In this document: in pieces, positions 38,890 through 64,000 of the stretch | How the letters are laid out: each line of letters opens with the position of its first letter | Numbering within the stretch: the stretch's first letter is position 1 | Assembly (NCBI GenBank): GCA_032718475.1 | Contig: JAUCBJ010008594.1 | Coordinates: 77,249-141,248 of the forward strand | Direction of reading: 5' to 3' | DNA length: 64,000 nucleotides | DNA from: Nemertoderma westbladi | Taxonomy: Eukaryota > Animalia > Xenacoelomorpha | Position numbers and translations under genes: made by a program | Notes under the pieces: model-generated | The model's input: the letters and a program-made list of their open reading frames with translations, nothing else | Databases searched by the model: none | Told to the model about the DNA's origin: nothing

Positions 38890-39113
38890 GAATTGACTTA
38901 CGAAAAGGTGTCTAAACTAGAATATCTCGATCGCGTTATATCTGAGACTCTCCGATTGTGTTCGCCTATTGTGCGATTTGAGAGAGTTTGCTCCGAGGAT
39001 TGCGTGGTTAACGGCGTGACGATACCCTAAGATACCGTTGTAGCGGGTTCCCTCTACGTATTACATAGAGATCCGGAAATCTGGCCTAATCCGGAGGAGT
39101 TTAATCCAGATAG
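38890..39113 (+). CDS. CYP exon 9 (in-frame TAA at 39028)
   Basis: ELTYEKVSKLEYLDRVISETLRL...GVTIP*DTVV...HRDPEIWPNPEEFNPDR; donor GTGGGT, phase 2. Confidence 0.9.
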
Positions 39114-39296
39114 GTGGGTTGTTGGACTGCATATTGTTGTTGATATATTTTACTATATATTAAACGCAGAACACACCCGCTGACACTTATGACACCTTTG
39201 TGTGAGTTGATGTATCGTAGTGCAAGTATTACTGAATTAAAGCGGGCTGACAAAAAACCTTTTTATTTCGAAAAGTTAAGCTATACCCACCACCCA

Positions 39297-39843
39297 CACC
39301 AGCATACCATCCTTTGAGCTTGTGCTCATCCGGTCAGAGACTTGCTGAGGACTTTCAAAGTTTACTGTCAAAATTTTGGTCTTTCTGGAGTTAATAAAGA
39401 GACCAACACTAGAAGCAGCATGTTCTAATGAGCCGAGGAGCCGTTCGGCTCCCTCTAGTGATTCTGAGAGCAAGTCATCAGCAAAGTCTAGATCAGTTGG
39501 TACTTGGCAGGATTTCCTCGACTTCTGGAGCCAGTAGGTGGAGTTATCATCATCCCATCATCATTATGATGATCTAAGGACATGCGTAGAACATAGTCAA
39601 CCACAATAATGAACAAGAATGGTGCAAGTGTGTCTCCTTGGAGGACGCCCCATAACACTTCAAATGGTTCTGTGTCACCGTCAACAGTAGACACAAATGT
39701 TGTCGAACCATCGTATACTGATCTGATTGATGCAATAATTTCATCAGGGATCCCATATAATGAAGATATGCTGAACATACGTGAGCGGGAGACTGAATCA
39801 AAGGCTTTGAAGAAGTCAACAAAGATAACAGCCAGATGCCTGT
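39297..39843 (-). mobile_element. Internal RTE LINE RT fragment in intron 9
   Basis: Matches 24465-24995 (GVLQGDTLAPFLF, FADD). Confidence 0.88.
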
Positions 39844-40420
39844 CCCCCCTCTGTCACAATCGATCACGAATTTTGTAACCCCCCCCCCCCCCCCCCCCCC
39901 CCCTTGAATGTCACGCCACAAAAAATACCCATTATAGTTAATAAAAAATGTTAAATGTTAAATTATTATGTTATTAACACTAAATGTTAATACTTCATTA
40001 ATTCAGCTGTACACAATGACTAAACAAGGAAGACACCACGCATAGACACTCCCATGGGAATGACGACATCTGAGTTTCGACATCGATCACCGGAAGTGCA
40101 CCAGGTATACGATCGCCTATTGTTCCATTTCCTGGGTCTAACTCTACCTCGTCCTTATCTACCCAACCCATTCAATGTGGTGTTCTTCATCTTTATCGCC
40201 ACTTAGAATTAACACTTCATCCCCTCGATTCGCGATTACTTGAATAGATTTCACTTTGGCTGTTGATGTTGGTGTTATGTATTTTATTTATTCACCAAAG
40301 TGCTTTTGTGACGTCACAAGTATAGCTACTCACCCCCTTCCCCCATGTCACAAATTGTCACAACATTGCAACCCCCCCCCCCCCCCTTCGACCGTGACAT
40401 CATTTATACACGAGCCCTTA
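39844..40420. mobile_element. Probable MITE/DNA transposon remnant
   Basis: Repeated TGTCAC/GTGACG motifs with poly-C tracts; right end reads AGGGCTCGTGTATAAATGATGTCACGG on the minus strand, next to TTA; left end appears truncated. Confidence 0.45.
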
Positions 40421-40428
40421 TTACTACT

Positions 40429-43400
40429 GCTTTGTTTGGTTAATTTTTCGTTTATGCAGGTTTCTCGCTTTGTTTGGTTAATTTTTCGTTTATACAGGTT
40501 TCTCGCTTTGTTTGGTTAATTTTTCATTTATACAGGTTTCTCGCTTTATTTTGTTAATTTTTCGTTTATACAGGTTTCTCGCTTTGTTTGGTTAATTTTT
40601 CGTTTATACAGGTTTCTCGCTTTGCTTGGTTAATTTTTCGTTTATATAGGTTTCTCGCTTTGTTTGGTTAATTTTTCGTTTATACAGGTTTCTCGCTTTG
40701 TTTTGTTAATTTTTCATTTATACAGGTTTCTCGCTTTGTTTGGTTAATTTTTCGTTTATACAGGTTTCTCGCTTTGTTTGGTTAATTTTTCGTTTATACA
40801 GGTTTCTCGCTTTGTTTTGTTAATTTTTCATTTATACAGGTTTCTCGCTTTGTTTGGTTAATTTTTCGTTTATACAGGTTTCTCGCTTTGTTTTGTTAAT
40901 TTTTCGTTTATACAGGTTTCTCGCTTTGTTTGGTAAATTTTTCGTTTATACAGGTTTCTCGCTTTGTTTTGTTAATTTTTCGTTTATACAGGTTTCTCGC
41001 TTTGTTTGGTTAATTTTTCGTTTATACAGGTTTCTCGCTTTGTTTGGTTAATTTTTCATTTATACAGGTTTCTCGCTTTATTTTGTTAATTTTTCGTTTA
41101 TACAGGTTTCTCGCTTTGTTTGGTTAATTTTTCGTTTATACAGGTTTCTCGCTTTGCTTGGTTAATTTTTCGTTTATATAGGTTTCTCGCTTTGTTTGGT
41201 TAATTTTTCGTTTATACAGGTTTCTCGCTTTGTTTTGTTAATTTTTCATTTATACAGGTTTCTCGCTTTGTTTGGTTAATTTTTCGTTTATACAGGTTTC
41301 TCGCTTTGTTTGGTTAATTTTTCGTTTATACAGGTTTCTCGCTTTGTTTTGTTAATTTTTCATTTATACAGGTTTCTCGCTTTGTTTGGTTAATTTTTCG
41401 TTTATACAGGTTTCTCGCTTTATTTGGTTAATTTTTCGTTTATGCAGGATTCTCGCTTTGTTTGGTTAATTTTTCGTTTATACAGGTTTCTCGCTTTGTT
41501 TGGTTAATTTTTCGTTTATACAGGTTTCTCGCTTTGTTTGGTAAATTTTTCGTTTATACAGGTTTCTCGCTTTGTTTTGTTAATTTTTCGTTTATACAGG
41601 TTTCTCGCTTTGTTTGGTTAATTTTGCATTTATACAGGTTTCTCACTTTGTTTGATTAATTTTTCGTTTATACAGGTTTCTCGCTTTGTTTGGTTAATTT
41701 TTCATTTATACAGGTTTCTCGCTTTGTTTGGTTAATTTTTCGTTTATACAGGGTTCTGGCTTTGTTTGGTAAATTTTTCGTTTATGCAGGATTCTCGCTT
41801 TGTTTGGTTAATTTTTCGTTTATACAGGTTTCTCGCTTTGTTTGGTTAATTTTTCATTTATACAGGTTTCTCGCTTTATTTTGTTAATTTTTCGTTTATA
41901 CAGGTTTCTCGCTTTGTTTGGTTAATTTTTCGTTTATACAGGTTTCTCGCTTTGCTTGGTTAATTTTTCGTTTATATAGGTTTCTCGCTTTGTTTGGTTA
42001 ATTTTTCGTTTATACAGGTTTCTCGCTTTGTTTTGTTAATTTTTCATTTATACAGGTTTCTCGCTTTGTTTGGTTAATTTTTCGTTTATACAGGTTTCTC
42101 GCTTTGTTTGGTTAATTTTTCGTTTATACAGGTTTCTCGCTTTGTTTTGTTAATTTTTCATTTATACAGGTTTCTCGCTTTGTTTGGTTAATTTTTCGTT
42201 TATACAGGTTTCTCGCTTTGTTTTGTTAATTTTTCGTTTATACAGGTTTCTCGCTTTGTTTGGTAAATTTTTCGTTTATACAGGTTTCTCGCTTTGTTTT
42301 GTTAATTTTTCGTTTATACAGGTTTCTCGCTTTGTTTGGTTAATTTTTCGTTTATACAGGTTTCTCGCTTTGTTTGGTTAATTTTTCGTTTATACAGGTT
42401 TCTCGCTTTGTTTGGTTAATTTTTCGTTTATACAGGTTTCTCGCTTTGTTTTGTTAATTTTTCGTTTATACAGGTTTCTCGCTTTGTTTGGTAAATTTTT
42501 CGTTTATACAGGTTTCTCGCTTTGTTTTGTTAATTTTTCGTTTATACAGGTTTCTCGCTTTGTTTGGTTAATTTTGCATTTATACAGGTTTCTCACTTTG
42601 TTTGATTAATTTTTCGTTTATACAGGTTTCTCGCTTTGTTTGGTTAATTTTTCATTTATACAGGTTTCTCGCTTTGTTTGGTTAATTTTTCGTTTATGCA
42701 GGATTCTCGCTTTGTTTGGTTAATTTTTCATTTATACAGGTTTCTCGCTTTGTTTGGTTAATTTTTCGTTTATACAGGTTTCTCGCTTTGTTTGGTAAAT
42801 TTTTCGTTTATACAGGTTTCTCGCTTTGTTTTGTTAATTTTTCGTTTATACAGGTTTCTCGCTTTGTTTGGTTAATTTTGCATTTATACAGGTTTCTCAC
42901 TTTGTTTGATTAATTTTTCGTTTATACAGGTTTCTCGCTTTGTTTGGTTAATTTTTCATTTATACAGGTTTCTCGCTTTGTTTGGTTAATTTTTCGTTTA
43001 TACAGGGTTCTGGCTTTGTTTGGGAAATTTTTCGTTTATGCAGGATTCTCGCTTTGTTTGGTTAATTTTTCGTTTATACAGGTTTCTCGCTTTGTTTGGT
43101 TAATTTTTCATTTATACAGGTTTCTCGCTTTATTTTGTTAATTTTTCGTTTATACAGGTTTCTCGCTTTGTTTGGTTAATTTTTCGTTTATACAGGTTTC
43201 TCGCTTTGCTTGGTTAATTTTTCGTTTATATAGGTTTCTCGCTTTGTTTGGTTAATTTTTCGTTTATACAGGTTTCTCGCTTTGTTTTGTTAATTTTTCA
43301 TTTATACAGGTTTCTCGCTTTGTTTGGTTAATTTTTCGTTTATACAGGTTTCTCGCTTTGTTTGGTTAATTTTTCGTTTATACAGGTTTCTCGCTTTGTT

Positions 43401-46400
43401 TTGTTAATTTTTCATTTATACAGGTTTCTCGCTTTGTTTGGTTAATTTTTCGTTTATACAGGTTTCTCGCTTTGTTTTGTTAATTTTTCGTTTATACAGG
43501 TTTCTCGCTTTGTTTGGTAAATTTTTCGTTTATACAGGTTTCTCGCTTTGTTTTGTTAATTTTTCGTTTATACAGGTTTCTCGCTTTGTTTGGTTAATTT
43601 TTCGTTTATACAGGTTTCTCGCTTTGTTTGGTTAATTTTTCGTTTATACAGGTTTCTCGCTTTGTTTGGTTAATTTTTCGTTTATACAGGTTTCTCGCTT
43701 TGTTTTGTTAATTTTTCGTTTATACAGGTTTCTCGCTTTGTTTGGTAAATTTTTCGTTTATACAGGTTTCTCGCTTTGTTTTGTTAATTTTTCGTTTATA
43801 CAGGTTTCTCGCTTTGTTTGGTTAATTTTGCATTTATACAGGTTTCTCACTTTGTTTGATTAATTTTTCGTTTATACAGGTTTCTCGCTTTGTTTGGTTA
43901 ATTTTTCATTTATACAGGTTTCTCGCTTTGTTTGGTTAATTTTTCGTTTATGCAGGATTCTCGCTTTGTTTGGTTAATTTTTCATTTATACAGGTTTCTC
44001 GCTTTGTTTGGTTAATTTTTCGTTTATGCAGGTTTCTCGCTTTGTTTGGTTAATTTTTCGTTTATACAGGTTTCTCGCTTTGTTTGGTTAATTTTTCGTT
44101 TATACAGGTTTCTCGCTTTGTTTGGTTAATTTTTCATTTATACAGGTTTCTCGCTTTATTTTGTTAATTTTTCGTTTATACAGGTTTCTCGCTTTGTTTG
44201 GTTAATTTTTCGTTTATACAGGTTTCTCGCTTTGCTTGGTTAATTTTTCGTTTATATAGGTTTCTCGCTTTGTTTGGTTAATTTTTCGTTTATACAGGTT
44301 TCTCGCTTTGTTTTGTTAATTTTTCATTTATACAGGTTTCTCGCTTTGTTTGGTTAATTTTTCGTTTATACAGGTTTCTCGCTTTGTTTGGTTAATTTTT
44401 CGTTTATACAGGTTTCTCGCTTTGTTTTGTTAATTTTTCATTTATACAGGTTTCTCGCTTTGTTTGGTTAATTTTTCGTTTATACAGGTTTCTCGCTTTA
44501 TTTGGTTAATTTTTCGTTTATGCAGGATTCTCGCTTTGTTTGGTTAATTTTTCGTTTATACAGGTTTCTCGCTTTGTTTGGTTAATTTTTCGTTTATACA
44601 GGTTTCTCGCTTTGTTTGGTAAATTTTTCGTTTATACAGGTTTCTCGCTTTGTTTTGTTAATTTTTCGTTTATACAGGTTTCTCGCTTTGTTTGGTTAAT
44701 TTTGCATTTATACAGGTTTCTCACTTTGTTTGATTAATTTTTCGTTTATACAGGTTTCTCGCTTTGTTTGGTTAATTTTTCATTTATACAGGTTTCTCGC
44801 TTTGTTTGGTTAATTTTTCGTTTATACAGGGTTCTGGCTTTGTTTGGTAAATTTTTCGTTTATGCAGGATTCTCGCTTTGTTTGGTTAATTTTTCGTTTA
44901 TACAGGTTTCTCGCTTTGTTTGGTTAATTTTTCATTTATACAGGTTTCTCGCTTTATTTTGTTAATTTTTCGTTTATACAGGTTTCTCGCTTTGTTTGGT
45001 TAATTTTTCGTTTATACAGGTTTCTCGCTTTGCTTGGTTAATTTTTCGTTTATATAGGTTTCTCGCTTTGTTTGGTTAATTTTTCGTTTATACAGGTTTC
45101 TCGCTTTGTTTTGTTAATTTTTCATTTATACAGGTTTCTCGCTTTGTTTGGTTAATTTTTCGTTTATACAGGTTTCTCGCTTTGTTTGGTTAATTTTTCG
45201 TTTATACAGGTTTCTCGCTTTGTTTTGTTAATTTTTCATTTATACAGGTTTCTCGCTTTGTTTGGTTAATTTTTCGTTTATACAGGTTTCTCGCTTTGTT
45301 TTGTTAATTTTTCGTTTATACAGGTTTCTCGCTTTGTTTGGTAAATTTTTCGTTTATACAGGTTTCTCGCTTTGTTTTGTTAATTTTTCGTTTATACAGG
45401 TTTCTCGCTTTGTTTGGTTAATTTTTCGTTTATACAGGTTTCTCGCTTTGTTTGGTTAATTTTTCGTTTATACAGGTTTCTCGCTTTGTTTGGTTAATTT
45501 TTCGTTTATACAGGTTTCTCGCTTTGTTTTGTTAATTTTTCGTTTATACAGGTTTCTCGCTTTGTTTGGTAAATTTTTCGTTTATACAGGTTTCTCGCTT
45601 TGTTTTGTTAATTTTTCGTTTATACAGGTTTCTCGCTTTGTTTGGTTAATTTTGCATTTATACAGGTTTCTCACTTTGTTTGATTAATTTTTCGTTTATA
45701 CAGGTTTCTCGCTTTGTTTGGTTAATTTTTCATTTATACAGGTTTCTCGCTTTGTTTGGTTAATTTTTCGTTTATGCAGGATTCTCGCTTTGTTTGGTTA
45801 ATTTTTCATTTATACAGGTTTCTCGCTTTGTTTGGTTAATTTTTCGTTTATACAGGTTTCTCGCTTTGTTTGGTAAATTTTTCGTTTATACAGGTTTCTC
45901 GCTTTGTTTTGTTAATTTTTCGTTTATACAGGTTTCTCGCTTTGTTTGGTTAATTTTGCATTTATACAGGTTTCTCACTTTGTTTGATTAATTTTTCGTT
46001 TATACAGGTTTCTCGCTTTGTTTGGTTAATTTTTCATTTATACAGGTTTCTCGCTTTGTTTGGTTAATTTTTCGTTTATACAGGGTTCTGGCTTTGTTTG
46101 GGAAATTTTTCGTTTATGCAGGATTCTCGCTTTGTTTGGTTAATTTTTCGTTTATACAGGTTTCTCGCTTTGTTTGGTTAATTTTTCATTTATACAGGTT
46201 TCTCGCTTTATTTTGTTAATTTTTCGTTTATACAGGTTTCTCGCTTTGTTTGGTTAATTTTTCGTTTATACAGGTTTCTCGCTTTGCTTGGTTAATTTTT
46301 CGTTTATATAGGTTTCTCGCTTTGTTTGGTTAATTTTTCGTTTATACAGGTTTCTCGCTTTGTTTTGTTAATTTTTCATTTATACAGGTTTCTCGCTTTG

Positions 46401-49400
46401 TTTGGTTAATTTTTCGTTTATACAGGTTTCTCGCTTTGTTTGGTTAATTTTTCGTTTATACAGGTTTCTCGCTTTGTTTTGTTAATTTTTCATTTATACA
46501 GGTTTCTCGCTTTGTTTGGTTAATTTTTCGTTTATACAGGTTTCTCGCTTTGTTTTGTTAATTTTTCGTTTATACAGGTTTCTCGCTTTGTTTGGTAAAT
46601 TTTTCGTTTATACAGGTTTCTCGCTTTGTTTTGTTAATTTTTCGTTTATACAGGTTTCTCGCTTTGTTTGGTTAATTTTTCGTTTATACAGGTTTCTCGC
46701 TTTGTTTGGTTAATTTTTCGTTTATACAGGTTTCTCGCTTTGTTTGGTTAATTTTTCGTTTATACAGGTTTCTCGCTTTGTTTTGTTAATTTTTCGTTTA
46801 TACAGGTTTCTCGCTTTGTTTGGTAAATTTTTCGTTTATACAGGTTTCTCGCTTTGTTTTGTTAATTTTTCGTTTATACAGGTTTCTCGCTTTGTTTGGT
46901 TAATTTTGCATTTATACAGGTTTCTCACTTTGTTTGATTAATTTTTCGTTTATACAGGTTTCTCGCTTTGTTTGGTTAATTTTTCATTTATACAGGTTTC
47001 TCGCTTTGTTTGGTTAATTTTTCGTTTATGCAGGATTCTCGCTTTGTTTGGTTAATTTTTCATTTATACAGGTTTCTCGCTTTGTTTGGTTAATTTTTCG
47101 TTTATGCAGGATTCTCGCTTTGTTTGGTTAATTTTTCGTTTATACAGGTTTCTCGCTTTGTTTGGTTAATTTTTCGTTTATACAGGTTTCTCGCTTTGTT
47201 TGGTAAATTTTTCGTTTATACAGGTTTTTCGCTTTGTTTTGTTAATTTTTCGTTTATACAGGTTTCTCGCTTTGTTTGGTTAATTTTGCATTTATACAGG
47301 TTTCTCACTTTGTTTGATTAATTTTTCGTTTATACAGGTTTCTCGCTTTGTTTGGTTAATTTTTCATTTATACAGGTTTCTCGCTTTGTTTGGTTAATTT
47401 TTCGTTTATACAGGGTTCTGGCTTTGTTTGGTAAATTTTTCGTTTATGCAGGATTCTCGCTTTGTTTGGTTAATTTTTCGTTTATACAGGTTTCTCGCTT
47501 TGTTTGGTTAATTTTTCGTTTATACAGGTTTCTCGCTTTGTTTGGTTAATTTTTCGTTTATGCAGGATTCTCGCTTTGTTTGGTTAATTTTTCATTTATA
47601 CAGGTTTCTCGCTTTGTTTGGTTAATTTTTCGTTTATACAGGGTTCTGGCTTTGTTTGGTTAATTTTTCGTTTATGCAGGATTCTCGCTTTGTTTGGTTA
47701 ATTTTTCGTTTATACAGGGTTCTCGCTTTGTTTGGTTAATTTTTCATTTATACAGGTTTCTCGCTTTGTTTGGTTAATTTTACGTTTATACAGGGTTCTG
47801 GCTTTGTTTGGTTAATTTTTCGTTTATGCAGGATTCTGGCTTTGTTTGGTTAATTTTTCGTTTATGCAGGATTCTCGCTTTGTTTGGTTAATTTTTCATT
47901 TATACAGGTTTCTCGCTTTGTTTGGTTAATTTTTCGTTTATACAGGTTTCTCGCTTTATTTCGTTAATTTTTCGTTTATACAGGTTTCTCGCTTTGTTTG
48001 GTTAATTTTGCATTTATACAGGTTTCTCACTTTGTTTGATTAATTTTTCGTTTATACAGGTTTCTCGCTTTGTTTGGTTAATTTTTCATTTATACAGGTT
48101 TCTCGCTTTGTTTGGTTAATTTTTCGTTTATACAGGGTTCTGGCTTTGTTTGGTAAATTTTTCGTTTATGCAGGATTCTCGCTTTGTTTGGTTAATTTTT
48201 CGTTTATACAGGTTTCTCGCTTTGTTTGGTTAATTTTTCATTTATACAGGTTTCTCGCTTTATTTTGTTAATTTTTCGTTTATACAGGTTTCTCGCTTTG
48301 TTTGGTTAATTTTTCGTTTATACAGGTTTCTCGCTTTGCTTGGTTAATTTTTCGTTTATATAGGTTTCTCGCTTTGTTTGGTTAATTTTTCGTTTATACA
48401 GGTTTCTCGCTTTGTTTTGTTAATTTTTCATTTATACAGGTTTCTCGCTTTGTTTGGTTAATTTTTCGTTTATACAGGTTTCTCGCTTTGTTTGGTTAAT
48501 TTTTCGTTTATACAGGTTTCTCGCTTTGTTTTGTTAATTTTTCATTTATACAGGTTTCTCGCTTTGTTTGGTTAATTTTTCGTTTATACAGGTTTCTCGC
48601 TTTGTTTTGTTAATTTTTCGTTTATACAGGTTTCTCGCTTTGTTTGGTAAATTTTTCGTTTATACAGGTTTCTCGCTTTGTTTTGTTAATTTTTCGTTTA
48701 TACAGGTTTCTCGCTTTGTTTGGTTAATTTTTCGTTTATACAGGTTTCTCGCTTTGTTTGGTTAATTTTTCGTTTATACAGGTTTCTCGCTTTGTTTGGT
48801 TAATTTTTCGTTTATACAGGTTTCTCGCTTTGTTTTGTTAATTTTTCGTTTATACAGGTTTCTCGCTTTGTTTGGTAAATTTTTCGTTTATACAGGTTTC
48901 TCGCTTTGTTTTGTTAATTTTTCGTTTATACAGGTTTCTCGCTTTGTTTGGTTAATTTTGCATTTATACAGGTTTCTCACTTTGTTTGATTAATTTTTCG
49001 TTTATACAGGTTTCTCGCTTTGTTTGGTTAATTTTTCATTTATACAGGTTTCTCGCTTTGTTTGGTTAATTTTTCGTTTATGCAGGATTCTCGCTTTGTT
49101 TGGTTAATTTTTCATTTATACAGGTTTCTCGCTTTGTTTGGTTAATTTTTCGTTTATACAGGTTTCTCGCTTTGTTTGGTAAATTTTTCGTTTATACAGG
49201 TTTCTCGCTTTGTTTTGTTAATTTTTCGTTTATACAGGTTTCTCGCTTTGTTTGGTTAATTTTGCATTTATACAGGTTTCTCACTTTGTTTGATTAATTT
49301 TTCGTTTATACAGGTTTCTCGCTTTGTTTGGTTAATTTTTCATTTATACAGGTTTCTCGCTTTGTTTGGTTAATTTTTCGTTTATACAGGGTTCTGGCTT

Positions 49401-52400
49401 TGTTTGGGAAATTTTTCGTTTATGCAGGATTCTCGCTTTGTTTGGTTAATTTTTCGTTTATACAGGTTTCTCGCTTTGTTTGGTTAATTTTTCATTTATA
49501 CAGGTTTCTCGCTTTATTTTGTTAATTTTTCGTTTATACAGGTTTCTCGCTTTGTTTGGTTAATTTTTCGTTTATACAGGTTTCTCGCTTTGCTTGGTTA
49601 ATTTTTCGTTTATATAGGTTTCTCGCTTTGTTTGGTTAATTTTTCGTTTATACAGGTTTCTCGCTTTGTTTTGTTAATTTTTCATTTATACAGGTTTCTC
49701 GCTTTGTTTGGTTAATTTTTCGTTTATACAGGTTTCTCGCTTTGTTTGGTTAATTTTTCGTTTATACAGGTTTCTCGCTTTGTTTTGTTAATTTTTCATT
49801 TATACAGGTTTCTCGCTTTGTTTGGTTAATTTTTCGTTTATACAGGTTTCTCGCTTTGTTTTGTTAATTTTTCGTTTATACAGGTTTCTCGCTTTGTTTG
49901 GTAAATTTTTCGTTTATACAGGTTTCTCGCTTTGTTTTGTTAATTTTTCGTTTATACAGGTTTCTCGCTTTGTTTGGTTAATTTTTCGTTTATACAGGTT
50001 TCTCGCTTTGTTTGGTTAATTTTTCGTTTATACAGGTTTCTCGCTTTGTTTGGTTAATTTTTCGTTTATACAGGTTTCTCGCTTTGTTTTGTTAATTTTT
50101 CGTTTATACAGGTTTCTCGCTTTGTTTGGTAAATTTTTCGTTTATACAGGTTTCTCGCTTTGTTTTGTTAATTTTTCGTTTATACAGGTTTCTCGCTTTG
50201 TTTGGTTAATTTTGCATTTATACAGGTTTCTCACTTTGTTTGATTAATTTTTCGTTTATACAGGTTTCTCGCTTTGTTTGGTTAATTTTTCATTTATACA
50301 GGTTTCTCGCTTTGTTTGGTTAATTTTTCGTTTATGCAGGATTCTCGCTTTGTTTGGTTAATTTTTCATTTATACAGGTTTCTCGCTTTGTTTGGTTAAT
50401 TTTTCGTTTATGCAGGATTCTCGCTTTGTTTGGTTAATTTTTCGTTTATACAGGTTTCTCGCTTTGTTTGGTTAATTTTTCGTTTATACAGGTTTCTCGC
50501 TTTGTTTGGTAAATTTTTCGTTTATACAGGTTTTTCGCTTTGTTTTGTTAATTTTTCGTTTATACAGGTTTCTCGCTTTGTTTGGTTAATTTTGCATTTA
50601 TACAGGTTTCTCACTTTGTTTGATTAATTTTTCGTTTATACAGGTTTCTCGCTTTGTTTGGTTAATTTTTCATTTATACAGGTTTCTCGCTTTGTTTGGT
50701 TAATTTTTCGTTTATACAGGGTTCTGGCTTTGTTTGGTAAATTTTTCGTTTATGCAGGATTCTCGCTTTGTTTGGTTAATTTTTCGTTTATACAGGTTTC
50801 TCGCTTTGTTTGGTTAATTTTTCGTTTATACAGGTTTCTCGCTTTGTTTGGTTAATTTTTCGTTTATGCAGGATTCTCGCTTTGTTTGGTTAATTTTTCA
50901 TTTATACAGGTTTCTCGCTTTGTTTGGTTAATTTTTCGTTTATACAGGGTTCTGGCTTTGTTTGGTTAATTTTTCGTTTATGCAGGATTCTCGCTTTGTT
51001 TGGTTAATTTTTCGTTTATACAGGGTTCTCGCTTTGTTTGGTTAATTTTTCATTTATACAGGTTTCTCGCTTTGTTTGGTTAATTTTACGTTTATACAGG
51101 GTTCTGGCTTTGTTTGGTTAATTTTTCGTTTATGCAGGATTCTGGCTTTGTTTGGTTAATTTTTCGTTTATGCAGGATTCTCGCTTTGTTTGGTTAATTT
51201 TTCATTTATACAGGTTTCTCGCTTTGTTTGGTTAATTTTTCGTTTATACAGGTTTCTCGCTTTATTTCGTTAATTTTTCGTTTATACAGGGTTCTGGCTT
51301 TGTTTGGTTAATTTTTCGTTTATATAGGTTTCTCGCTTTGTTTGGTTAATTTTTCGTTTATATAGGTTTCTCGCTTTGCTTGGTTAATTTTTCGTTTATA
51401 TAGGTTTCTCGCTTTGTTTGGTTAATTTTTCGTTTATACAGGTTTCTCGCTTTGTTTTGTTAATTTTTCATTTATACAGGTTTCTCGCTTTGTTTGGTTA
51501 ATTTTTCGTTTATACAGGTTTCTCGCTTTGTTTGGTTAATTTTTCGTTTATACAGGTTTCTCGCTTTGTTTGGTTAATTTTTCGTTTATACAGGTTTCTC
51601 GCTTTGTTTTGTTAATTTTTCGTTTATACAGGTTTCTCGCTTTGTTTGGTAAATTTTTCGTTTATACAGGTTTCTCGCTTTGTTTTGTTAATTTTTCGTT
51701 TATACAGGTTTCTCGCTTTGTTTGGTTAATTTTGCATTTATACAGGTTTCTCACTTTTTTGATTAATTTTTCGTTTATACAGGTTTCTCGCTTTGTTTGG
51801 TTAATTTTTCATTTATACAGGTTTCTCGCTTTGTTTGGTAAATTTTTCGTTTATGCAGGATTCTCGCTTTGTTTGGTTAATTTTTCATTTATACAGGTTT
51901 CTCGCTTTGTTTGGTTAATTTTTCGTTTATGCAGGATTCTCGCTTTGTTTGGTTAATTTTTCGTTTATACAGGTTTCTCGCTTTGTTTGGTTAATTTTTC
52001 GTTTATACAGGTTTCTCGCTTTGTTTGGTAAATTTTTCGTTTATACAGGTTTCTCGCTTTGTTTTGTTAATTTTTCGTTTATACAGGTTTCTCGCTTTGT
52101 TTGGTTAATTTTGCATTTATACAGGTTTCTCGCTTTGTTTTGTTAATTTTTCGTTTATACAGGTTTCTCGCTTTGTTTGGTTAATTTTTCGTTTATACAG
52201 GTTTCTCGCTTTGTTTGGTTAATTTTTCGTTTATACAGGTTTCTCGCTTTGTTTGGTTAATTTTTCGTTTATACAGGTTTCTCGCTTTGTTTTGTTAATT
52301 TTTCGTTTATACAGGTTTCTCGCTTTGTTTGGTAAATTTTTCGTTTATACAGGTTTCTCGCTTTGTTTTGTTAATTTTTCGTTTATACAGGTTTCTCGCT

Positions 52401-55400
52401 TTGTTTGGTTAATTTTGCATTTATACAGGTTTCTCACTTTGTTTGATTAATTTTTCGTTTATACAGGTTTCTCGCTTTGTTTGGTTAATTTTTCATTTAT
52501 ACAGGTTTCTCGCTTTGTTTGGTTAATTTTTCGTTTATGCAGGATTCTCGCTTTGTTTGGTTAATTTTTCATTTATACAGGTTTCTCGCTTTGTTTGGTT
52601 AATTTTTCGTTTATGCAGGATTCTCGCTTTGTTTGGTTAATTTTTCGTTTATACAGGTTTCTCGCTTTGTTTGGTTAATTTTTCGTTTATACAGGTTTCT
52701 CGCTTTGTTTGGTAAATTTTTCGTTTATACAGGTTTTTCGCTTTGTTTTGTTAATTTTTCGTTTATACAGGTTTCTCGCTTTGTTTGGTTAATTTTGCAT
52801 TTATACAGGTTTCTCACTTTGTTTGATTAATTTTTCGTTTATACAGGTTTCTCGCTTTGTTTGGTTAATTTTTCATTTATACAGGTTTCTCGCTTTGTTT
52901 GGTTAATTTTTCGTTTATACAGGGTTCTGGCTTTGTTTGGTAAATTTTTCGTTTATGCAGGATTCTCGCTTTGTTTGGTTAATTTTTCGTTTATACAGGT
53001 TTCTCGCTTTGTTTGGTTAATTTTTCGTTTATACAGGTTTCTCGCTTTGTTTGGTTAATTTTTCGTTTATGCAGGATTCTCGCTTTGTTTGGTTAATTTT
53101 TCATTTATACAGGTTTCTCGCTTTGTTTGGTTAATTTTTCGTTTATACAGGGTTCTGGCTTTGTTTGGTTAATTTTTCGTTTATGCAGGATTCTCGCTTT
53201 GTTTGGTTAATTTTTCGTTTATACAGGGTTCTCGCTTTGTTTGGTTAATTTTTCATTTATACAGGTTTCTCGCTTTGTTTGGTTAATTTTACGTTTATAC
53301 AGGGTTCTGGCTTTGTTTGGTTAATTTTTCGTTTATGCAGGATTCTGGCTTTGTTTGGTTAATTTTTCGTTTATGCAGGATTCTCGCTTTGTTTGGTTAA
53401 TTTTTCATTTATACAGGTTTCTCGCTTTGTTTGGTTAATTTTTCGTTTATACAGGGTTCTCGCTTTATTTCGTTAATTTTTCGTTTATACAGGGTTCTGG
53501 CTTTGTTTGGTTAATTTTTCGTTTATATAGGTTTCTCGCTTTGTTTGGTTAATTTTTCGTTTATATAGGTTTCTCGCTTTGCTTGGTTAATTTTTCGTTT
53601 ATATAGGTTTCTCGCTTTGTTTGGTTAATTTTTCGTTTATACAGGTTTCTCGCTTTGTTTTGTTAATTTTTCATTTATACAGGTTTCTCGCTTTGTTTGG
53701 TTAATTTTTCGTTTATACAGGTTTCTCGCTTTGTTTGGTTAATTTTTCGTTTATACAGGTTTCTCGCTTTGTTTGGTTAATTTTTCGTTTATACAGGTTT
53801 CTCGCTTTGTTTTGTTAATTTTTCGTTTATACAGGTTTCTCGCTTTGTTTGGTAAATTTTTCGTTTATACAGGTTTCTCGCTTTGTTTTGTTAATTTTTC
53901 GTTTATACAGGTTTCTCGCTTTGTTTGGTTAATTTTGCATTTATACAGGTTTCTCACTTTTTTGATTAATTTTTCGTTTATACAGGTTTCTCGCTTTGTT
54001 TGGTTAATTTTTCATTTATACAGGTTTCTCGCTTTGTTTGGTAAATTTTTCGTTTATGCAGGATTCTCGCTTTGTTTGGTTAATTTTTCATTTATACAGG
54101 TTTCTCGCTTTGTTTGGTTAATTTTTCGTTTATGCAGGATTCTCGCTTTGTTTGGTTAATTTTTCGTTTATACAGGTTTCTCGCTTTGTTTGGTTAATTT
54201 TTCGTTTATACAGGTTTCTCGCTTTGTTTGGTAAATTTTTCGTTTATACAGGTTTCTCGCTTTGTTTTGTTAATTTTTCGTTTATACAGGTTTCTCGCTT
54301 TGTTTGGTTAATTTTGCATTTATACAGGTTTCTCACTTTGTTTGATTAATTTTTCGTTTATACAGGTTTCTCGCTTTGTTTGGTTAATTTTTCATTTATA
54401 CAGGTTTCTCGCTTTGTTTGGTTAATTTTTCGTTTATACAGGGTTCTGGCTTTGTTTGGTAAATTTTTCGTTTATGCAGGATTCTCGCTTTGTTTGGTTA
54501 ATTTTTCGTTTATACAGGTTTCTCGCTTTGTTTGGTTAATTTTTCGTTTATACAGGTTTCTCGCTTTGTTTGGTTAATTTTTCGTTTATGCAGGATTCTC
54601 GCTTTGTTTGGTTAATTTTTCATTTATACAGGTTTCTCGCTTTGTTTGGTTAATTTTTCGTTTATACAGGGTTCTGGCTTTGTTTGGTTAATTTTTCGTT
54701 TATGCAGGATTCTCGCTTTGTTTGGTTAATTTTTCGTTTATACAGGGTTCTCGCTTTGTTTGGTTAATTTTTCATTTATACAGGTTTCTAGCTTTGTTTG
54801 GTTAATTTTACGTTTATACAGGGTTCTGGCTTTGTTTGGTTAATTTTTCGTTTATGCAGGATTCTGGCTTTGTTTGGTTAATTTTTCGTTTATGCAGGAT
54901 TCTCGCTTTGTTTGGTTAATTTTTCATTTATACAGGTTTCTCGCTTTGTTTGGTTAATTTTTCGTTTATACAGGGTTCTGGCTTTGTTTGGTTAATTTTT
55001 CGTTTATGTAGGATTCTCGCTTTGTTTGGTTAATTTTTCATTTATACAGGTTTCTCGCTTTGTTTGGTTAATTTTACGTTTATACAGGGTTCTGGCTTTG
55101 TTTGGTTAATTTTTCGTTTATGCAGGATTCTCGCTTTGTTTGGTTAATTTTTCGTTTATGCAGGATTCTCGCTTTGTTTGGTTAATTTTTCGTTTATGCA
55201 GGATTCTCGCTTTTGTTTGGTTAATTTTTCGTTTATACAGGTTTCTCGCTTTGTTTGGTTAATTTTTCGTTTATACAGATTTCTCGCTTTGTTTGGTTAA
55301 TTTTTCGTTTATACAGATTTCTCGCTTTGTTTGGTTAATTTTGCATTTATACAGGTTTCTCGCTTTGTTTGGTTAATTTTTCGTTTATACAGGGTTCTGG

Positions 55401-58400
55401 CTTTGTTAGGTTAATTTTTCGTTTATGCAGGATTCTCGCTTTGTTTGGTTAATTTTTCGTTTATACAGGGTTCTCGCTTTGTTTGGTTAATTTTTCATTT
55501 ATACAGGTTTCTCGCTTTGTTTGGTTAATTTTACGTTTATACAGGTTTCTGGCTTTGTTTGGTTAATTTTTCGTTTATGCAGGATTCTGGCTTTGTTTGG
55601 TTAATTTTTCGTTTATGCAGGATTCTCGCTTTGTTTGGTTAATTTTTCGTTTATATAGGGTTCTGGCTTTGTTTGGTTAATTTTTCGTTTATACAGGGTT
55701 CTGGCTTTGTTTGGTTAATTTTTCGTTTATGCAGGATTCTCGCTTTGTTTGGTTAATTTTTCATTTATACAGGTTTCTCGCTTTGTTTGGTTAATTTTTC
55801 GTTTATACAGGGTTCTGACTTTGTTTGGTTAATTTTTCGTTTATGCAGGTTTCTCGCTTTGTTTGGTTAATTTTTCGTTTATACAGGGTTCTCGCTTTGT
55901 TTGGTAAATTTTTCATTTATACAGGATTCTCGCTTTGTTTGGTTAATTTTTCGTTTATACAGGTTTCTCGCTTTGTTTGGTTAATTTTTCGTTTATACAG
56001 GATTCTCGCTTTGTTTGGTTAATTTTTCGTTTATGCAGGATTCTCGCTTTGTTTGGTTAATTTTTCGTTTATATAGGGTTCTGGCTTTGTTTGGTTAATT
56101 TTTCCTTTAAGCAGGGTTCTCGCTTTGTTTGGGTAATTTTTCGTTTATACAGGTTTCTCGCTTTGTTTGGTTAATTTTTCGTTTATGCAGGATTCTCGCT
56201 TTGTTTGGTTAATTTTTCGTTTATACAGGTTTCTCGCTTTGTTTGGTTAATTTTTCATTTAGACAGGTTTCTCGCTTTGTTTGGTTAATTTTTCGTTTAT
56301 GCAGGATTCTCGCTTTGTTTGGTTAATTTTTCGTATATGCAGGATTCTCGCTTTGTTTGGTTAATTTTTCGTTTATACAGGTTTCTCGCTTTGGTTGGTT
56401 AATTTTTCGTTTATACAGGTTTCTCGCTTTGTTTGGTTAATTTTTCGTTTATGCAGGATTCTCGCTTTGTTTGGTTAATTTTTCATTTATACAGGTTTCT
56501 CGCTTTGTTTGGTTAATTTTTCGTTTATACAGGGTTCTGGCTTTGTTTGGTTAATTTTTCGTTTATGCAGGATTCTCGCTTTGTTTGGTTAATTTTACGT
56601 TTATGCAGGATTCTCGCTTTGTTTGGTTAATTTTTCGTTTATACAGGTTTCTCGCTTTGTTTGGTTAATTTTTCGTTTATACAGGTTTCTCGCTTTGTTT
56701 GGTTAATTTTTCGTTTATGCAGGATTCTCGCTTTGTTTGGTTAATTTTTCATTTATACAGGTTTCTCGCTTTGTTTGGTTAATTTTTCGTTTATACAGGG
56801 TTCTGGCTTTGTTTGGTTAATTTTTCGTTTATGCAGGATTCTCGCTTTGTTTGGTTAATTTTTCGTTTATACAGGATTCTTGCTTTGTTTGGTTAATTTT
56901 TCGTTTATACAGGATTCTCGCTTTGTTTGGTTAATTTTTCGTTTATACAGGTTTCTCGCTTTGTTTGGTTAATTTTTCATTTATACAGGTTTATCGCTTT
57001 GTTTGGTTAATTTTTCGTTTATGCAGGATTCGCGCTTTGTTTGGTTAATTTTTCATTTATACAGGTTTCTCGCTTTGTTTGGTTAATTTTTCGTTTATGC
57101 AGGATTCTCGCTTTGTTTGGTTAATTTTTCGTTTATACAGGATTCTCGCTTTGTTTGGTGAATTTTTCGTTTATACAGGATTCTCGCTTTGTTTGGTTAA
57201 TTTTTCGTTTATACAGGTTTCTCGCTTTGTTTGGTTAATTTTTCATTTATACAGGTTTCTCGCTTTGTTTGGTTAATTTTTCGTTTATACAGGTTTCTCG
57301 CTTTGTTTGGTTAATTTTTCATTTATACAGGTTTCTCGCTTTGTTTGGTTAATTTTTCGTTTATACAGGGTTCTCGCTTTGTTTGGTTAATTTTGCATTT
57401 ATACAGGTTTCTCGCTTTGTTTGGTTAATTTTTCGTTTATACAGAGTTCTGGCTTTGTTTGGTTAATTTTTCGTTTATGCAGGATTCTCGCTTTGTTTGG
57501 TTAATTTTTCGTTTATACAGGGTTCTCGCTTTGTTTGGTTAATTTTTCATTTATACAGGTTTCTCGCTTTGTTTGGTTAATTTTTCGTTTATACAGGTTT
57601 CTCGCTTTGTTTGGTTAATTTTTCATTTATACAGGTTTCTCGCTTTGTTTGGTTAATTGTTCGTTTATGCAGGGTTCTGGCTTTGTTTGGTTAATTTTTC
57701 GTTTATGCAGGATTCTCGCTTTGTTTGGTTAATTTTTCGTTTATACAGGATTCTCGCTTTGTTTTGATAATTTTTCGTTTATACAGGTTTCTCGCTTTGT
57801 TTGGTTAATTTTTCATTTATACAGGTTTCTCGCTTTGTTTGGTTAATTTTTCGTTTATACAGGGTTCTCGCTTTGTTTGGTTAATTTTGCATTTATACAG
57901 GTTTCTCGCTTTGTTTGGTTAATTTTTCGTTTATACAGGATTCTCGCATTGTTTGGTTAATTTTTCGTTTATACAGGTTTCTCGCTTTGTTTGGTTAATT
58001 TTTCATTTATACAGGTTTCTCGCTTTGTTTGGTTAATTTTTCGTTTATACAGGGTTCTCGCTTTGTTTGGTTAATTTTGCATTTATACAGGTTTCTCGCT
58101 TTGTTTGGTTAATTTTTCGTTTATACAGGATTCTCGCATTGTTTGGTTAATTTTTCGTTTATACAGGTTTCTCGCTTTGTTTGGTTAATTTTTCATTTAT
58201 ACAGGTTTCTCGCTTTGTTTGGTTAATTTTTCGTTTATACAGGGTTCTGGCTTTGTTTGTCTAATTTTTCGTTTATACAGGATTCTCGCTTTGTTTGGTT
58301 AATTTTTCGTTTATACAGGATTCTCGCTTTGTTTGGTTAATTTTTCGTTTATACGGGTTTCTCGCTTTGTTTGGTTAATTTTTCCTTCATACAGGTTTCT

Positions 58401-61398
58401 CGCTTTGTTTGGTTAATTTTTCATTTATACAGGTTTCTCGCTTTGTTTGGTTAATTTTTCGTTTATACAGGATTCTCGCTTTGTTTTGATAATTTTTCGT
58501 TTATACAGGTTTCTCGCTTTGTTTGGTTAATTTTTCATTTATACAGGTTTCTCGCTATGTTTGGTTAATTTTTCGTTTATACAGGATTCTCGCATTGTTT
58601 GGTTAATTTTTCGTTTATACAGGTTTCTCGCTTTGTTTGGTTAATTTTTCATTTATACAGGATTCTCGCTGTGTTTGGTTAATTTTTCGTTTATACAGGA
58701 TTCTCGCTTTGTTTGGTTAATTTTTCGTTTATACAGGATTCTCGCTTTGTTTGGTTAATTTTTCGTTTATACAGGATTCTCGCTTTGTTTGGTTAATTTT
58801 TCGTTTATACGGGTTTCTCGCTTTGTTTGGTTAATTTTTCCTTCATACAGGTTTCTCGCTTTGTTTGGTTAATTTTTCATTTATACAGGTTTCTCGCTTT
58901 GTTTTGATAATTTTTCGTTTATACAGGTTTCTCGCTTTGTTTGGTTAATTTTTCATTTATACAGGATTCTCGCTTTGTTTGGTTAATTTTTCGTTTATAC
59001 AGGTTTCTCGCTTTGTTTGGTTAATTTTTCATTTATACAGGTTTCTCGCTTTGTTTGGTTAATTTTTCGTTTATACAGGATTCTCGCTTTGTTTGGTTAA
59101 TTTTTCGTTTATACGGGTTTCTCGCTTTGTTTGGTTAATTTTTCCTTCATACAGGTTTCTCGCTTTGTTTGGTTAATTTTTCATTTATACAGGTTTCTCG
59201 CTTTGTTTGGTTAATTTTTCGTTTATACAGGGTTCTGGCTTTGTTTGTCTAATTTTTCGTTTATACAGGCACAGGGTTCTGGCTTTGTTTGTCTAATTTT
59301 TCGTTTATACAGGATTCTCGCTTTGTTTGGTTAATTTTTCGTTTATACAGGATTCTCGCTTTGTTTGGTTAATTTTTCGTTTATACGGGTTTCTCGCTTT
59401 GTTTGGTTAATTTTTCCTTCATACAGGTTTCTCGCTTTGTTTGGTTAATTTTTCATTTATACAGGTTTCTCGCTTTGTTTGGTTAATTTTTCGTTTATAC
59501 AGGATTCTCGCTTTGTTTTGATAATTTTTCGTTTATACAGGTTTCTCGCTTTGTTTGGTTAATTTTTCATTTATACAGGTTTCTCGCTATGTTTGGTTAA
59601 TTTTTCGTTTATACAGGATTCTCGCATTGTTTGGTTAATTTTTCGTTTATACAGGTTTCTCGCTTTGTTTGGTTAATTTTTCATTTATACAGGATTCTCG
59701 CTGTGTTTGGTTAATTTTTCGTTTATACAGGATTCTCGTTTTGTTTGGTTAATTTTTCGTTTATACAGGATTCTCGCTTTGTTTGGTTAATTTTTCGTTT
59801 ATACAGGATTCTCGCTTTGTTTGGTTAATTTTTCGTTTATACGGGTTTCTCGCTTTGTTTGGTTAATTTTTCCTTCATACAGGTTTCTCGCTTTGTTTGG
59901 TTAATTTTTCATTTATACAGGTTTCTCGCTTTGTTTTGATAATTTTTCGTTTATACAGGTTTCTCGCTTTGTTTGGTTAATTTTTCATTTATACAGGATT
60001 CTCGCTTTGTTTGGTTAATTTTTCGTTTATACAGGTTTCTCGCTTTGTTTGGTTAATTTTTCATTTATACAGGTTTCTCGCTTTGTTTGGTTAATTTTTC
60101 GTTTATACAGGGTTCTGGCTTTGTTTGTCTAATTTTTCGTTTATGCAGGATTCTCGCTTTGTTTGGTTAATTTTTCGTTTATACAGGATTCTCGCTTTGT
60201 TTGGTTAATTTTTCGTTTATACAGGATTCTCGCTTTGTTTGGTTAATTTTTCGTTTATATAGGTTTCTCGCTTTGTTTGGTTAATTTTTCATTTATACAG
60301 GTTTCTCGCTTTGTTTGGTTAATTTTTCATTTATACAGGTTTCTCGCTTTGCTTGGTTAATTTTTCGTTTATACAGGTTTCTCGCTTTGTTTGGTTAATT
60401 TTTCGTTTATACAGGTTTCTCGCTTTATTTCGTTAATTTTTCGTTTATACAGGGTTCTGGCTTTGTTTGTCTAATTTTTCGTTTATGCAGGATTCTCGCT
60501 TTGTTTGGTTAATTTTTCGTTTATGCAGGATTCTCGCTTTGTTTGGTTAATTTTTCGTTTATACAGGTTTCTCGCTTTATTTCGTTAATTTTTCGTTTAT
60601 ACAGGGTTCTGGCTTTGTTTGTCTAATTTTTCGTTTATGCAGGATTCTCGCTTTGTTTGGTTAATTTTTCGTTTATACAGGATTCTCGCTTTGTTTGGTT
60701 AATTTTTCGTTTATACAGGATTCTCGCTTTGTTTGGTTAATTTTTCGTTTATATAGGTTTCTCGCTTTGTTTGGTTAATTTTTCATTTATACAGGTTTCT
60801 CGCTTTGTTTGGTTAATTTTTCATTTATACAGGTTTCTCGCTTTGTTTGGTTAATTTTTCGTTTATACAGGTTTCTCGCTTTGTTTGGTTAATTTTTCGT
60901 TTATACAGGTTTCTCGCTTTGTTTGGTTAATTTTTCGTTTATACAGGATTCTCGCTTTGTTTGGTTAATTTTTCGTTTATACAGGTTTCTCGCTTTATTT
61001 CGTTAATTTTTCGTTTATACAGGATTCTCGCTTTGTTTGGTTAATTTTTCGTTTATACAGGTTTCTCGCTTTATTTCGTTTATACAGGTTTCTCGCTTTG
61101 TTTGGTTAATTTTTCGTTTATACAGGATTCTCGCTTTGTTTGGTTAATTTTTCGTTTATACAGGTTTCTCGCTTTATTTCGTTAATTTTTCGTTTATACA
61201 GGTTTCTCGCTTTGTTTGGTTAATTTTTCGTTTATACAGGATTCTCGCTTTGTTTGGTTAATTTTTCGTTTATATAGGTTTCTCGCTTTGTTTGGTTAAT
61301 TTTTCATTTATACAGGTTTCTCGCTTTATTTCGTTAATTTTTCGTTTATACAGGTTTCTCGCTTTATTTCGTTAATTTTTCGTTTATACAGGTTTCTC
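40429..61398 (+). repeat. 38-bp intronic satellite, about 550 copies, derived from the exon 10 splice acceptor
   Basis: Unit GCTTTGTTTGGTTAATTTTTCGTTTATACAG|GTTTCTC; the last unit runs directly into exon 10. Confidence 0.98.
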
Positions 61399-61538
61399 CC
61401 CGAACAAAAGAAGAATCGCAACCCCTATGCTTACGCTCCTTTTGGTCTCGGGCCCAGAAGTTGCCTAGCAACCAGATTTGCATTGCTGGAAGTAAAGGTG
61501 GCTCTCGTGAGACTCCTTCAAAACTATAACATTCAGAG
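61392..61538 (+). CDS. CYP exon 10 (heme-binding cysteine)
   Basis: RFLPEQKKNRNPYAYAPFGLGPRSCLATRFALLEVKVALVRLLQNYNIQR; phase matches exon 9; donor GTAAGA. Confidence 0.95.
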
Positions 61539-64000
61539 GTAAGATGAGCTCTATAGTTAAACTCTATGTTAATAACATTCAGAGGTAAGATGAGCTCTGG
61601 TTAAACTCTATGTTAATAACATTCAGAGGTACGATGAGCTCTTGTTAAACTCTATGTTAATAACATTCAGAGGTAAGATGAGCTCTAGTTAAACTCTATG
61701 TTAATAACATTCAGAGGTAAGATGAGCTCTAGTTAAACTCTATGTTAATAACATTCAGAGGTACGATGAGCTCTTGTTAAACTCTATGTTAATAACATTC
61801 AGAGGTAAGATGAGCTCTAGTTAAACTCCATGTTAATAACATCCAGAGGTACGATGAGCTCTAGTTAAACTCTATGTTAATAACATTCAGAGGTACGATG
61901 AGCTCTTGTTAAACTCTATGTTAATAACATTCAGAGGTAAGATGAGCTCTAGTTAAACTCTATGTTAATAACATTCAGAGGTAAGATGAGCTCTAGTTAA
62001 ACTCTATGTTAATAACATTCAGAGGTAAGATGAGCTCTAGTTAAACTCTATGTTAATAACATTCAGAGGTAAGATGAGCTCTAGTTAAACTCTATGTTAA
62101 TAACATTCAGAGGTAAGATGAGCTCTAGTTAAACTCTATGTTAATAACATTCAGAGGTAAGATGAGCTCTAGTTAAACTCTATGTTAATAACATTCGGAG
62201 GTAAGATGAGCTCTAGTTAAACTTTATGTTAATAACATTCAGACGTAAGATGAGCTCTAGTTAAACTCTATGTTAATAACATTCAGAGGTAAGATGAGCT
62301 CTAGTTAAACTCTATGTTAATAACATTCAGAGGTAAGATGAGCTCTAGTTAAACTCTATGTTACTAACATTCAGAGGTAAGATGAGCTCTAGTTAAACTT
62401 TATGTTAATAACCTTCAGACGTAAGATGAGCTCTAGTTAAACTCTATGTTAATAACATTCAGACGTAAGATGAGCTCTAGTTAAACTCTATGTTAATAAC
62501 ATTCAGAGGTAAGATGAGCTCTAGTTAAACTCTATGTTAATAACATTCAGAGGTAAGATGAGCTCTAGTTAAACTCTATGTTACTAACATTCAGAGGTAA
62601 GATGAGCTCTAGTTAAACTTTATGTTAATAACCTTCAGACGTAAGATGAGCTCTAGTTAAACTCTATGTTAATAACATTCAGAGGTAAGATGAGCTCTAG
62701 TTAAACTCTATGTTAATAACATTCAGAGGTAAGATGAGCTCTAGTTAAACTTTATGTTAATAACATTCAGAGGTAAGATGAGCTCTAGTTAAACTCTATG
62801 TTAATAACATTCAGAGGTAAGATGAGCTCTAGTTAAACTCCATGTTAATAACATTCATAGGTAAGATGAGCTCTAGTTAAACTCCATACTGATAACATTC
62901 AGAGGTAAGATGAGCTCTAGTTAAACTCCATGTTAATAACATTCATAGGTAAGATGAGCTCTAGTTCAACTCCATACTGATAACATTCAGAGGTAAGATG
63001 AGCTCTAGTTAAACTCCATGTTAATAACATTCAGAGGTAAGATGAGCTCTAGTTAAACTCCATACTGAGAACATTCAGAGGTAAGATGAGCTCTAGTTAA
63101 ACTCCATACTGATAACATCCCGAGGTAAGATGAGCTCTAGTTAAACTCCATACTGATAACATCCAGAGGTAAGATGAGCTCTAGTTCAACTCCATTTTAA
63201 TAACATCCAGAGGTAAGATGAGCTCTAGTTAAACTCCATACTGATAACATTCAGAGGTAAGATGAGCTCTAGTTAAACTCCATGTTAATAACATTCATAG
63301 GTAAGATGTGCTCTAGTTAAACTCCATACTGATAACATTCAGAGGTAAGATGAGCTCTAGTTAAACTCCATGTTAATAACATCCAGAGGTAAGATGAGCT
63401 CTAGTTAAACTCCATACTGATAACATTCAGAGGTAAGATGAGCTCTAGTTAAACTCCATGTTAATAACATTCATAGGTAAGATGTGCTCTAGTTAAACTC
63501 CATACTGATAACATTCAGAGGTAAGATGAGCTCTAGTTAAACTCCATGTTAATAACATTCATAGGTAAGATGTGCTCTAGTTAAACTCCATACTGATAAC
63601 ATTCAGAGGTAAGATGAGCTCTAGTTAAACTCCATGTTAATAACATTCAGAGGTAAGATGAGCTCTAGTTAAACTCCATACTGAGAACATTCAGAGGTAA
63701 GATGTGCTCTAGTTAAACTCCATACTGATAACATCCCGAGGTAAGATGAGCTCTAGTTAAACTCCATACTGATAACATCCAGAGGTAAGATGAGCTCTAG
63801 TTCAACTCCATTTTAATAACATCCAGAGGTAAGATGAGCTCTAGTTAAACTCCATACTGATAACATTCAGAGGTAAGATGAGCTCTAGTTAAACTCCATG
63901 TTAATAACATTCATAGGTAAGATGTGCTCTAGTTAAACTCCATACTGATAACATTCAGAGGTAAGATGAGCTCTAGTTAAACTCCATGTTAATAACATTC
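61526..64000 (+). repeat. 44-bp intronic satellite, at least 56 copies (runs off the window), derived from the exon 10 splice donor
   Basis: Unit ATAACATTCAGAG|GTAAGATGAGCTCTAGTTAAACTCTATGTTA; the first unit overlaps the exon end. Confidence 0.98.

Follow-up and report, generated by a model that had tools for sequence, protein, structure and literature searches.

A P450 exon of Nemertoderma westbladi lies between tandem arrays of its own acceptor and donor junctions

How is an exon spliced when both of its splice sites have been copied many times over into the adjoining introns? The question is raised by a stretch of 64,000 nucleotides (nt) of the Nemertoderma westbladi genome (contig JAUCBJ010008594.1; hereafter the window, the whole stretch of DNA that was analysed), in which exon 10 of a CYP3-like cytochrome P450 (CYP) gene is enclosed by two tandem arrays. 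The unit of the upstream array is 38 bp long and spans the acceptor of the exon; that of the downstream array is 44 bp long and spans its donor. The reading that we prefer, with a probability of about 0.6, is that these are two apparently locus-specific repeats of the kind known as mirages, which were amplified by slippage and unequal exchange, are tolerated through exon definition and are probably neutral.

The acceptor-spanning satellite occupies positions 40429-61398 on the forward strand, as does everything described here unless stated otherwise (Tandem Repeats Finder, TRF: period 38, 552.0 copies). Each unit is composed of the final 31 nt of intron 9, ending in AG, followed by the initial 7 nt of exon 10. 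Among the 552 units, 547 are 38 nt long; there are 60 unit types, with a mean divergence of 3.4%. The acceptor motif YAG is kept in 542 of the 547 full-length units, that is, in 541 intact decoy acceptors and the authentic last copy. The donor-spanning satellite begins at 61526 and continues past the end of the window at position 64000 (period 44, 56.2 copies); because the window end cuts the array, its 56 full units are a lower bound. In the donor unit, the terminal 13 nt of the exon are followed by the opening 31 nt of intron 10, which start with GT; the first unit is 46 nt long. GT is present in 56 of 56 units, and AG/GTAAG (the slash marking the exon–intron boundary) in 48. The exon portions of both units encode conserved CYP residues. 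Both arrays are thus mirages, or junction-spanning minisatellites, in that their head-to-tail units each hold an exon–intron boundary of the host gene and the splice signals are kept in the copies.

These results bear out most of what an initial annotation of the locus, made from the sequence alone, had claimed: about 550 copies of the exon's own acceptor upstream, at least 56 copies of its own donor downstream, and two unrelated units that nonetheless each straddle a boundary of exon 10. The best local match between the 38-bp and 44-bp units is 6 nt, and a shared origin was rejected on this basis. That annotation had also described exon 10 as the only unique sequence. Its length of 147 nt is correct, but the whole exon is not unique: 7 and 13 nt of it lie inside units, and the unique sequence between the arrays is just 127 nt (61399-61525). 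Positions 1-40428 of the window share no 14-mer with the consensus of either unit.

The acceptor array has a higher-order structure. At nested lags of 87, 81, 168, 33 and 58, unit identity is 0.22-0.25, against a shuffled maximum of 0.14 (50 shuffles, every third lag tested). In the 5' part of the array, one block of 86 units (3.3 kb) and another of 79 units (3.0 kb) recur without a single difference, because of which the count of 552 is uncertain and may be inflated or reflect very recent growth. The diversity of unit types is highest in the 3' third.

The gene model in the window consists of ten GT-AG exons between 28060 and 61538 (471 codons), with the final exon lying beyond the window. 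Exons 1-4 (28060-28124, 28834-28980, 32425-32521 and 32858-32974) and exons 5-8 (35098-35335, 35572-35711, 36549-36675 and 38279-38391) have an open frame. Exon 9 (38890-39113, 224 nt) runs from the EXXR motif to the PERF motif, and its donor pairs with the acceptor at 61392 over a 22.3-kb intron. Exon 10 (61392-61538, phase 2/2) is flanked by AG and GT, completes the PERF motif, holds the heme-binding FxxGxRxC motif, and matches positions 388-435 of the Pfam p450 model (E = 3.6e-14). The gene has the I-helix, EXXR, PERF and heme motifs of P450s, and its identity to vertebrate CYP3A is 43-45% over 443-467 amino acids (best 6 of 26 homologs). By these motifs and this similarity its predicted product is a clan-3 CYP, although the heme motif contains SCLA where the displayed CYP3A match has NCIG. 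We found no close named relative, the top named matches being vertebrate CYP3A proteins at 54-63% (63% for exon 9).

One lesion, the only one across the ten exons, interrupts the frame. Codon 395 of 471 is an in-frame TAA (39028-39030), which lies in exon 9 before the heme cysteine, at a position occupied by Lys in 24 of 26 homologs and by Gln in the other 2. The window haplotype therefore lacks an open frame that spans the heme cysteine and is predicted to be a null allele, unless the TAA is a consensus error. A search for short exon 9 proteins gave no candidate.

Splice-site use can be read from one of four public sequencing runs, out of six listed, that we compared as contigs (X1 to X4). 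The runs represent at most three samples from at most three studies, and one may be the source of the window; contig assemblies lose rare forms, and summed contig depth is not copy number. Run X4 has no library record and was taken as RNA from the GT..AG joints of exons 6-7, 7-8 and 8-9. Four X4 contigs fall on exon 10. One (depth 330) joins the end of the window exon 9 to 61392 with 0 differences in 32 nt. Another (depth 225) follows 61392-61540 with 0 differences in 149 nt and then enters new sequence encoding RCEKTVVPPAI, which aligns where a CYP3A homolog has TCKETQIPMKL and reads as the last exon of a CYP (exon 11). Because this contig runs from the end of exon 10 into sequence resembling a CYP last exon, the innermost donor is used. 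The X4 contigs that splice window-type exons 6-10 have depths of 190-330. The joins at 61392 and 61538 show normal mRNA made through the exon-proximal sites, as in other mirages. The initial annotation had asked whether 39113 joins 61392 and which donor is chosen; in this one run the join is present and the donor is the innermost.

The decoys are locally identical to the real sites, from -31 to +7 at the acceptor and from -13 to +31 at the donor. Translation from each of the 541 intact decoy acceptors reaches a stop by codon 7-109 (at codon 8 for 493 of them), and all decoy donors read into a TAA at 61540. The initial annotation had held that only the innermost sites give the right frame; an open frame is indeed unique to the innermost pair, but the frame itself is not, as it recovers at each third copy without ever being open. 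Stop-bearing decoy products are expected to be degraded by nonsense-mediated decay (NMD), which the product of the first decoy donor might escape, its stop lying just ~42 nt from the last junction.

The arrays are also present in the public DNA runs. In X1, X2 and X3, which come from two studies, contigs step back 38 nt at the unit end, as expected of tandem 38-bp units; the 44-bp unit is present in all three runs, in tandem order in X1. Units also occur in runs with alleles that differ from the window by several percent. In X4 there are no repeat-flank contigs and in X2 no window-type exon 10 contigs, neither of which counts as evidence because contigs drop rare forms. Could the arrays nevertheless be an artefact of assembly, missing or much shorter in the actual DNA? 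The perfect 86- and 79-unit blocks could represent over-expansion, and none of the listed contigs crosses from exon to array with 31 letters in each. Yet the step-back joints recur in the runs of two studies, unit contigs total 70-500 times the exon depth (276x and 503x in X1, 69x and 89x in X3, as ratios of summed depth and not copy numbers), and the 60 unit types, whose diversity peaks in the 3' third, also speak against an artefact. In X1 and X3 the exon contigs, 176 nt long, stop within the first unit on either side, short of the 31-letter threshold, which points the same way. We regard an artefact as very improbable: the arrays are real, and only their exact length is doubtful. As a separate observation, one X3 contig carries different unique sequence, 154 nt long, ahead of unit position 11 (before window position 61371) and does not reach the exon core; it may represent either a second 5' boundary of the array or a copy dispersed elsewhere. 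Run-to-run differences in depth ratio were seen as well, contig depth again not being copy number. Neither this X3 flank nor an X4 flank described below could be placed in the window when up to 3 mismatches were allowed.

A paralog gives an indication of the age of the arrays. It is 86% identical in exon 10, where 17 of 121 nt differ and 7 of the 8 listed differences are silent. Its genomic contigs in X1, X2 and X3 reach 136 nt upstream of the match and 530-1218 nt past it, with non-array letters in the 30 nt displayed on each side, and its exon is spliced in X4 at a depth of 365 without adjacent arrays. Array units are thus absent both from positions 1-40428 and from the displayed flanks of the paralog. 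Because those flanks are not array sequence, the arrays probably postdate the paralog duplication and are likely to be younger than this split; because the paralog is spliced without adjacent arrays, they are not needed for splicing this exon. The four runs also contain ~96%-identical versions of exons 5-6 (window 35085-36045), with depths that vary between runs. Together with the paralog (61390-61510), these versions are likely to represent a CYP cluster with copy-number variation.

The initial annotation had raised the possibility that the arrays act on splicing. In such a scheme nascent RNA would gather U2AF, U2 and U1 on the repeats, and copy number would adjust how often exon 10 is included or how much CYP is made. 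Nascent RNA from the locus would carry ~50 acceptors and then ~45 donors per 2 kb, with the signals intact in all but five of the full-length acceptor units and in every donor unit. In the chicken, splicing factors are recruited by LL2R repeat RNA, in which slightly more than 5 donors are predicted per 2 kb (bioRxiv 10.64898/2026.03.19.712899), and in humans many tandem repeats influence splicing (PMC10078293; here and below, statements on published systems refer to the covered parts of the papers cited). However, intact signals are also what youth and homogenisation predict, and the decoy AG shows no excess of conservation: 13 of the 38 unit positions are invariant and the mean number of substitution types is 1.05, compared with 1 and 0 at the A and the G. 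Among the acceptor-array units there is accordingly no sign of selection on the decoy AG. Furthermore, the paralog is spliced at a similar depth without adjacent arrays, and skipping or extension of exon 10 would merely destroy the enzyme. A functional role is therefore improbable, and this part of the initial annotation is not supported. Slightly less probable again is that the gene is a pseudogene in which the arrays expanded once selection had been lost. The stop in exon 9 replaces a conserved Lys ahead of the heme cysteine, as a dead gene would allow, but it is a solitary lesion, and X4 contains spliced window-type exons 6-10, with exon 10 free of differences. In addition, the exon 10 differences from the paralog are mostly silent, and the arrays seem to predate a lone, recent stop, since units occur in divergent alleles and are 3.4% from their consensus.

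We therefore return to neutral amplification tolerated through exon definition. Independent 38- and 44-bp duplications at the acceptor and donor of exon 10, after the paralog split, would have provided the seeds. Head-to-tail copying, likely by slippage and then by unequal exchange, would have enlarged them in a transposon-rich region, with growth outward only because selection keeps the exon. Exon definition would lead the spliceosome to the innermost pair, the only one that brackets a 147-nt exon containing the unique 127-nt core. Rare mis-splicing would mostly be cleared by NMD and would therefore have a low fitness cost. By analogy, the silence of the decoys has precedents in F7 IVS7 (intervening sequence 7; PMC1557585) and in the Adh3 and globin mirages (PMC3087553). 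The two-sided layout is most likely a matter of chance in a repeat-permissive region, which came to notice because many windows were scanned; a slight surplus of duplications at junctions may have contributed.

Several observations weigh against this account. Selection on the window haplotype may be relaxed, given the TAA in exon 9. A further X4 contig (depth 120, compared with 330 for the exon 9 join) joins to 61392 a 114-nt piece that is absent from the window and that could be an alternative upstream exon, another allele or a back-splice. The RNA evidence is a single run, inferred to be RNA, in the form of contigs that lose rare forms, and its own genomic alleles may not be those of the window. 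In the human 6-16 and CBS genes the two nearest pseudo-donors are also used, so decoys are not always silent (PMC1557585). Finally, 3 of the 19 gene junctions that we scored for an adjacent junction-spanning copy are duplicated, namely the acceptor and donor of exon 10 plus the donor of exon 4, compared with a background of 1.6-2.3% of sampled positions (P = 0.003-0.009 before correction for selection). All 3 read AG/GT, as do 6 of the full set of 19 (post hoc P = 0.02), and chance alone would lead one to expect neither result.

The last two points raise the alternative that duplications originate or survive preferentially at exon edges, above all at AG/GT, and that the arrays are the tail of a genome-wide bias. 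This explanation agrees with neutral amplification except on seeding. Its rationale is that a mis-spliced AG/GT product still starts with GT and ends with AG, and so might be cleared in a second step; in keeping with this, precisely spliced introns can arise from AGGT duplications (PMC3443670). The exon 4 donor supplies a third, unselected case: a two-copy duplication of period 30 (32960-33015, junction 32974/32975), absent from the TRF list at score 30, whose decoy would insert 10 codons in frame. However, without the two selected junctions the count falls to 1 of 17, which is not significant (P = 0.24-0.33, or ~0.05-0.18 on the gene-body background alone), and the donor regenerated in an AG/GT copy is weak (5 of 9 consensus matches). 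Hairpins at the three duplicated junctions do not exceed shuffles (z = +1.6, -0.7 and +0.2). Near the gene only one further long minisatellite came to light (33 bp, 14.8 copies, 97% matches, 26703-27190), and it lies away from coding junctions, ~870 nt upstream of the start codon, where it could still sit at a junction in the 5' untranslated region. Were junctions duplicated at the background rate, a given exon would have a probability of 0.0003-0.0005 of being hit on both sides, and two-sided seeds are therefore expected by chance in a large genome; the rarer part is that both grew to such a size. A junction bias is thus unlikely, if worth keeping in view. A bolder version, which we find doubtful, is that AG/GT edges self-correct in splicing, so that duplications there evade selection and reach satellite size. 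On that view a whole class of repeats across the genome would have been seeded at junctions, with this gene at its far end. Along 21 kb, 541 perfect acceptors would go by in its nascent RNA with no stable commitment to any of them, or would be spliced to and recursively re-spliced, until the exon-defining pair is reached. Hairpin seeding was considered separately and rejected: the three seeds resemble shuffles, and the lowest z of the 19 junctions (-2.2) is at an unduplicated donor.

The remainder of the window is rich in repeats. The rest of intron 9 (39279-40428) is repeat-derived. It holds a reverse-transcriptase fragment resembling those of long interspersed nuclear elements (LINEs) on the reverse strand (39279-39853; RVT_1, E = 4.7e-7), which has a second copy within the window, followed as far as the array by high-copy sequence with a high summed depth in the runs. 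The fragment belongs to one LINE-like family, whose pieces at 23620-25303, 29405-30094 and 39279-39853 are 91-97% alike, two of them lying within introns 2 and 9. Fragmented frames of a Bel/Pao-type long terminal repeat retrotransposon extend from 7600 to 15800 (Peptidase_A17, E = 4e-28) and contain an alanine/glutamate-rich repeat at 8809-9050. A large inverted duplication pairs 15470-18560 with 20338-23476 in nested arms that are mostly 85-97% complementary. An unclassified element (1090-3759, reverse strand; frames of 325, 265 and 176 codons) has related pieces at 17519-20768; its frames have no Pfam match above the cut-off (a weak zinc knuckle, E = 0.046), and the first has no atlas match. 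Related frames at 4989-5618 and 25240-26518 likewise have no Pfam match, and we take them, by eye, to resemble the C-terminal domain of a non-LTR element.

How does the locus compare with known systems? In amphioxus, the mirages of Adh3, the globins BflGb6 and BflGb9, troponin C and PGBD5 are tandem units that span exon–intron boundaries (PMC3087553, PMC3902484). They occur at both types of boundary and leave splicing undisturbed (PMC3087553). The arrays described here are alike in their boundary-spanning units, repeated splice signals and normally spliced mRNA. They differ in copy number (3-6 in print for BflGb6, compared with 552 and at least 56), in their higher-order blocks and in occupying both edges of one exon. 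Human donor-spanning minisatellites include F7 IVS7 (37 bp, 5-9 copies), 6-16 (25 pseudo-sites), CBS IVS13 (15-20 copies), lamin B2 (10-15) and PDGF (16-18) (PMC1557585). The F7 unit, with 4 exon and 33 intron nt, is close in length to the 38- and 44-bp units and likewise yields identical pseudo-donors. The exon-proximal donor is used in F7, where no other is, and in lamin B2 and PDGF, as the innermost sites are here. The human cases in that paper are all donor-side with at most 25 copies, whereas this locus has an additional 21-kb acceptor array.

Two other systems are more distant. The Rogers model, in which tandem duplication of AGGT can create introns (PMC3443670), shares an AG/GT in each unit, such that any stretch between copies has GT...AG ends. 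It duplicates exon-internal sequence to give a new intron, whereas here junctions have been copied into existing introns and no new intron is seen. Chicken LL2R is, like this locus, a transcribed tandem array dense in splice sites, but it is a ~160 kb non-coding unit with a retrotransposon promoter and predicted sites, as opposed to intronic copies of real junctions (bioRxiv 10.64898/2026.03.19.712899). In the part covered of a paper on splicing-associated repeats (PMC10078293) we noticed no junction-spanning case. The literature that we searched contained neither a two-sided or hundreds-of-copies case nor a genome-wide test of repeats for enrichment at junctions, both weak negatives given that supplements and most subscription papers lay outside its coverage.

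The repeat class is thus ordinary, and the locus is an unusually clean natural experiment. Starting 21 kb upstream, transcription passes through hundreds of acceptors that match the real one, and the real donor is followed by dozens or even hundreds of identical copies, so that first-come-first-served splicing is pitted against exon definition more sharply than in the 3-25-copy cases found in print. The locus also allows AG/GT junctions to be tested as seeds or shelters of tandem repeats. What the locus offers is a system in which to test how splice sites are chosen and whether repeats are seeded preferentially at junctions, and not the demonstration of a new mechanism. Structures of this kind have already been described in amphioxus and human genes; what differs here is the scale, and the presence of arrays at both edges of one exon.

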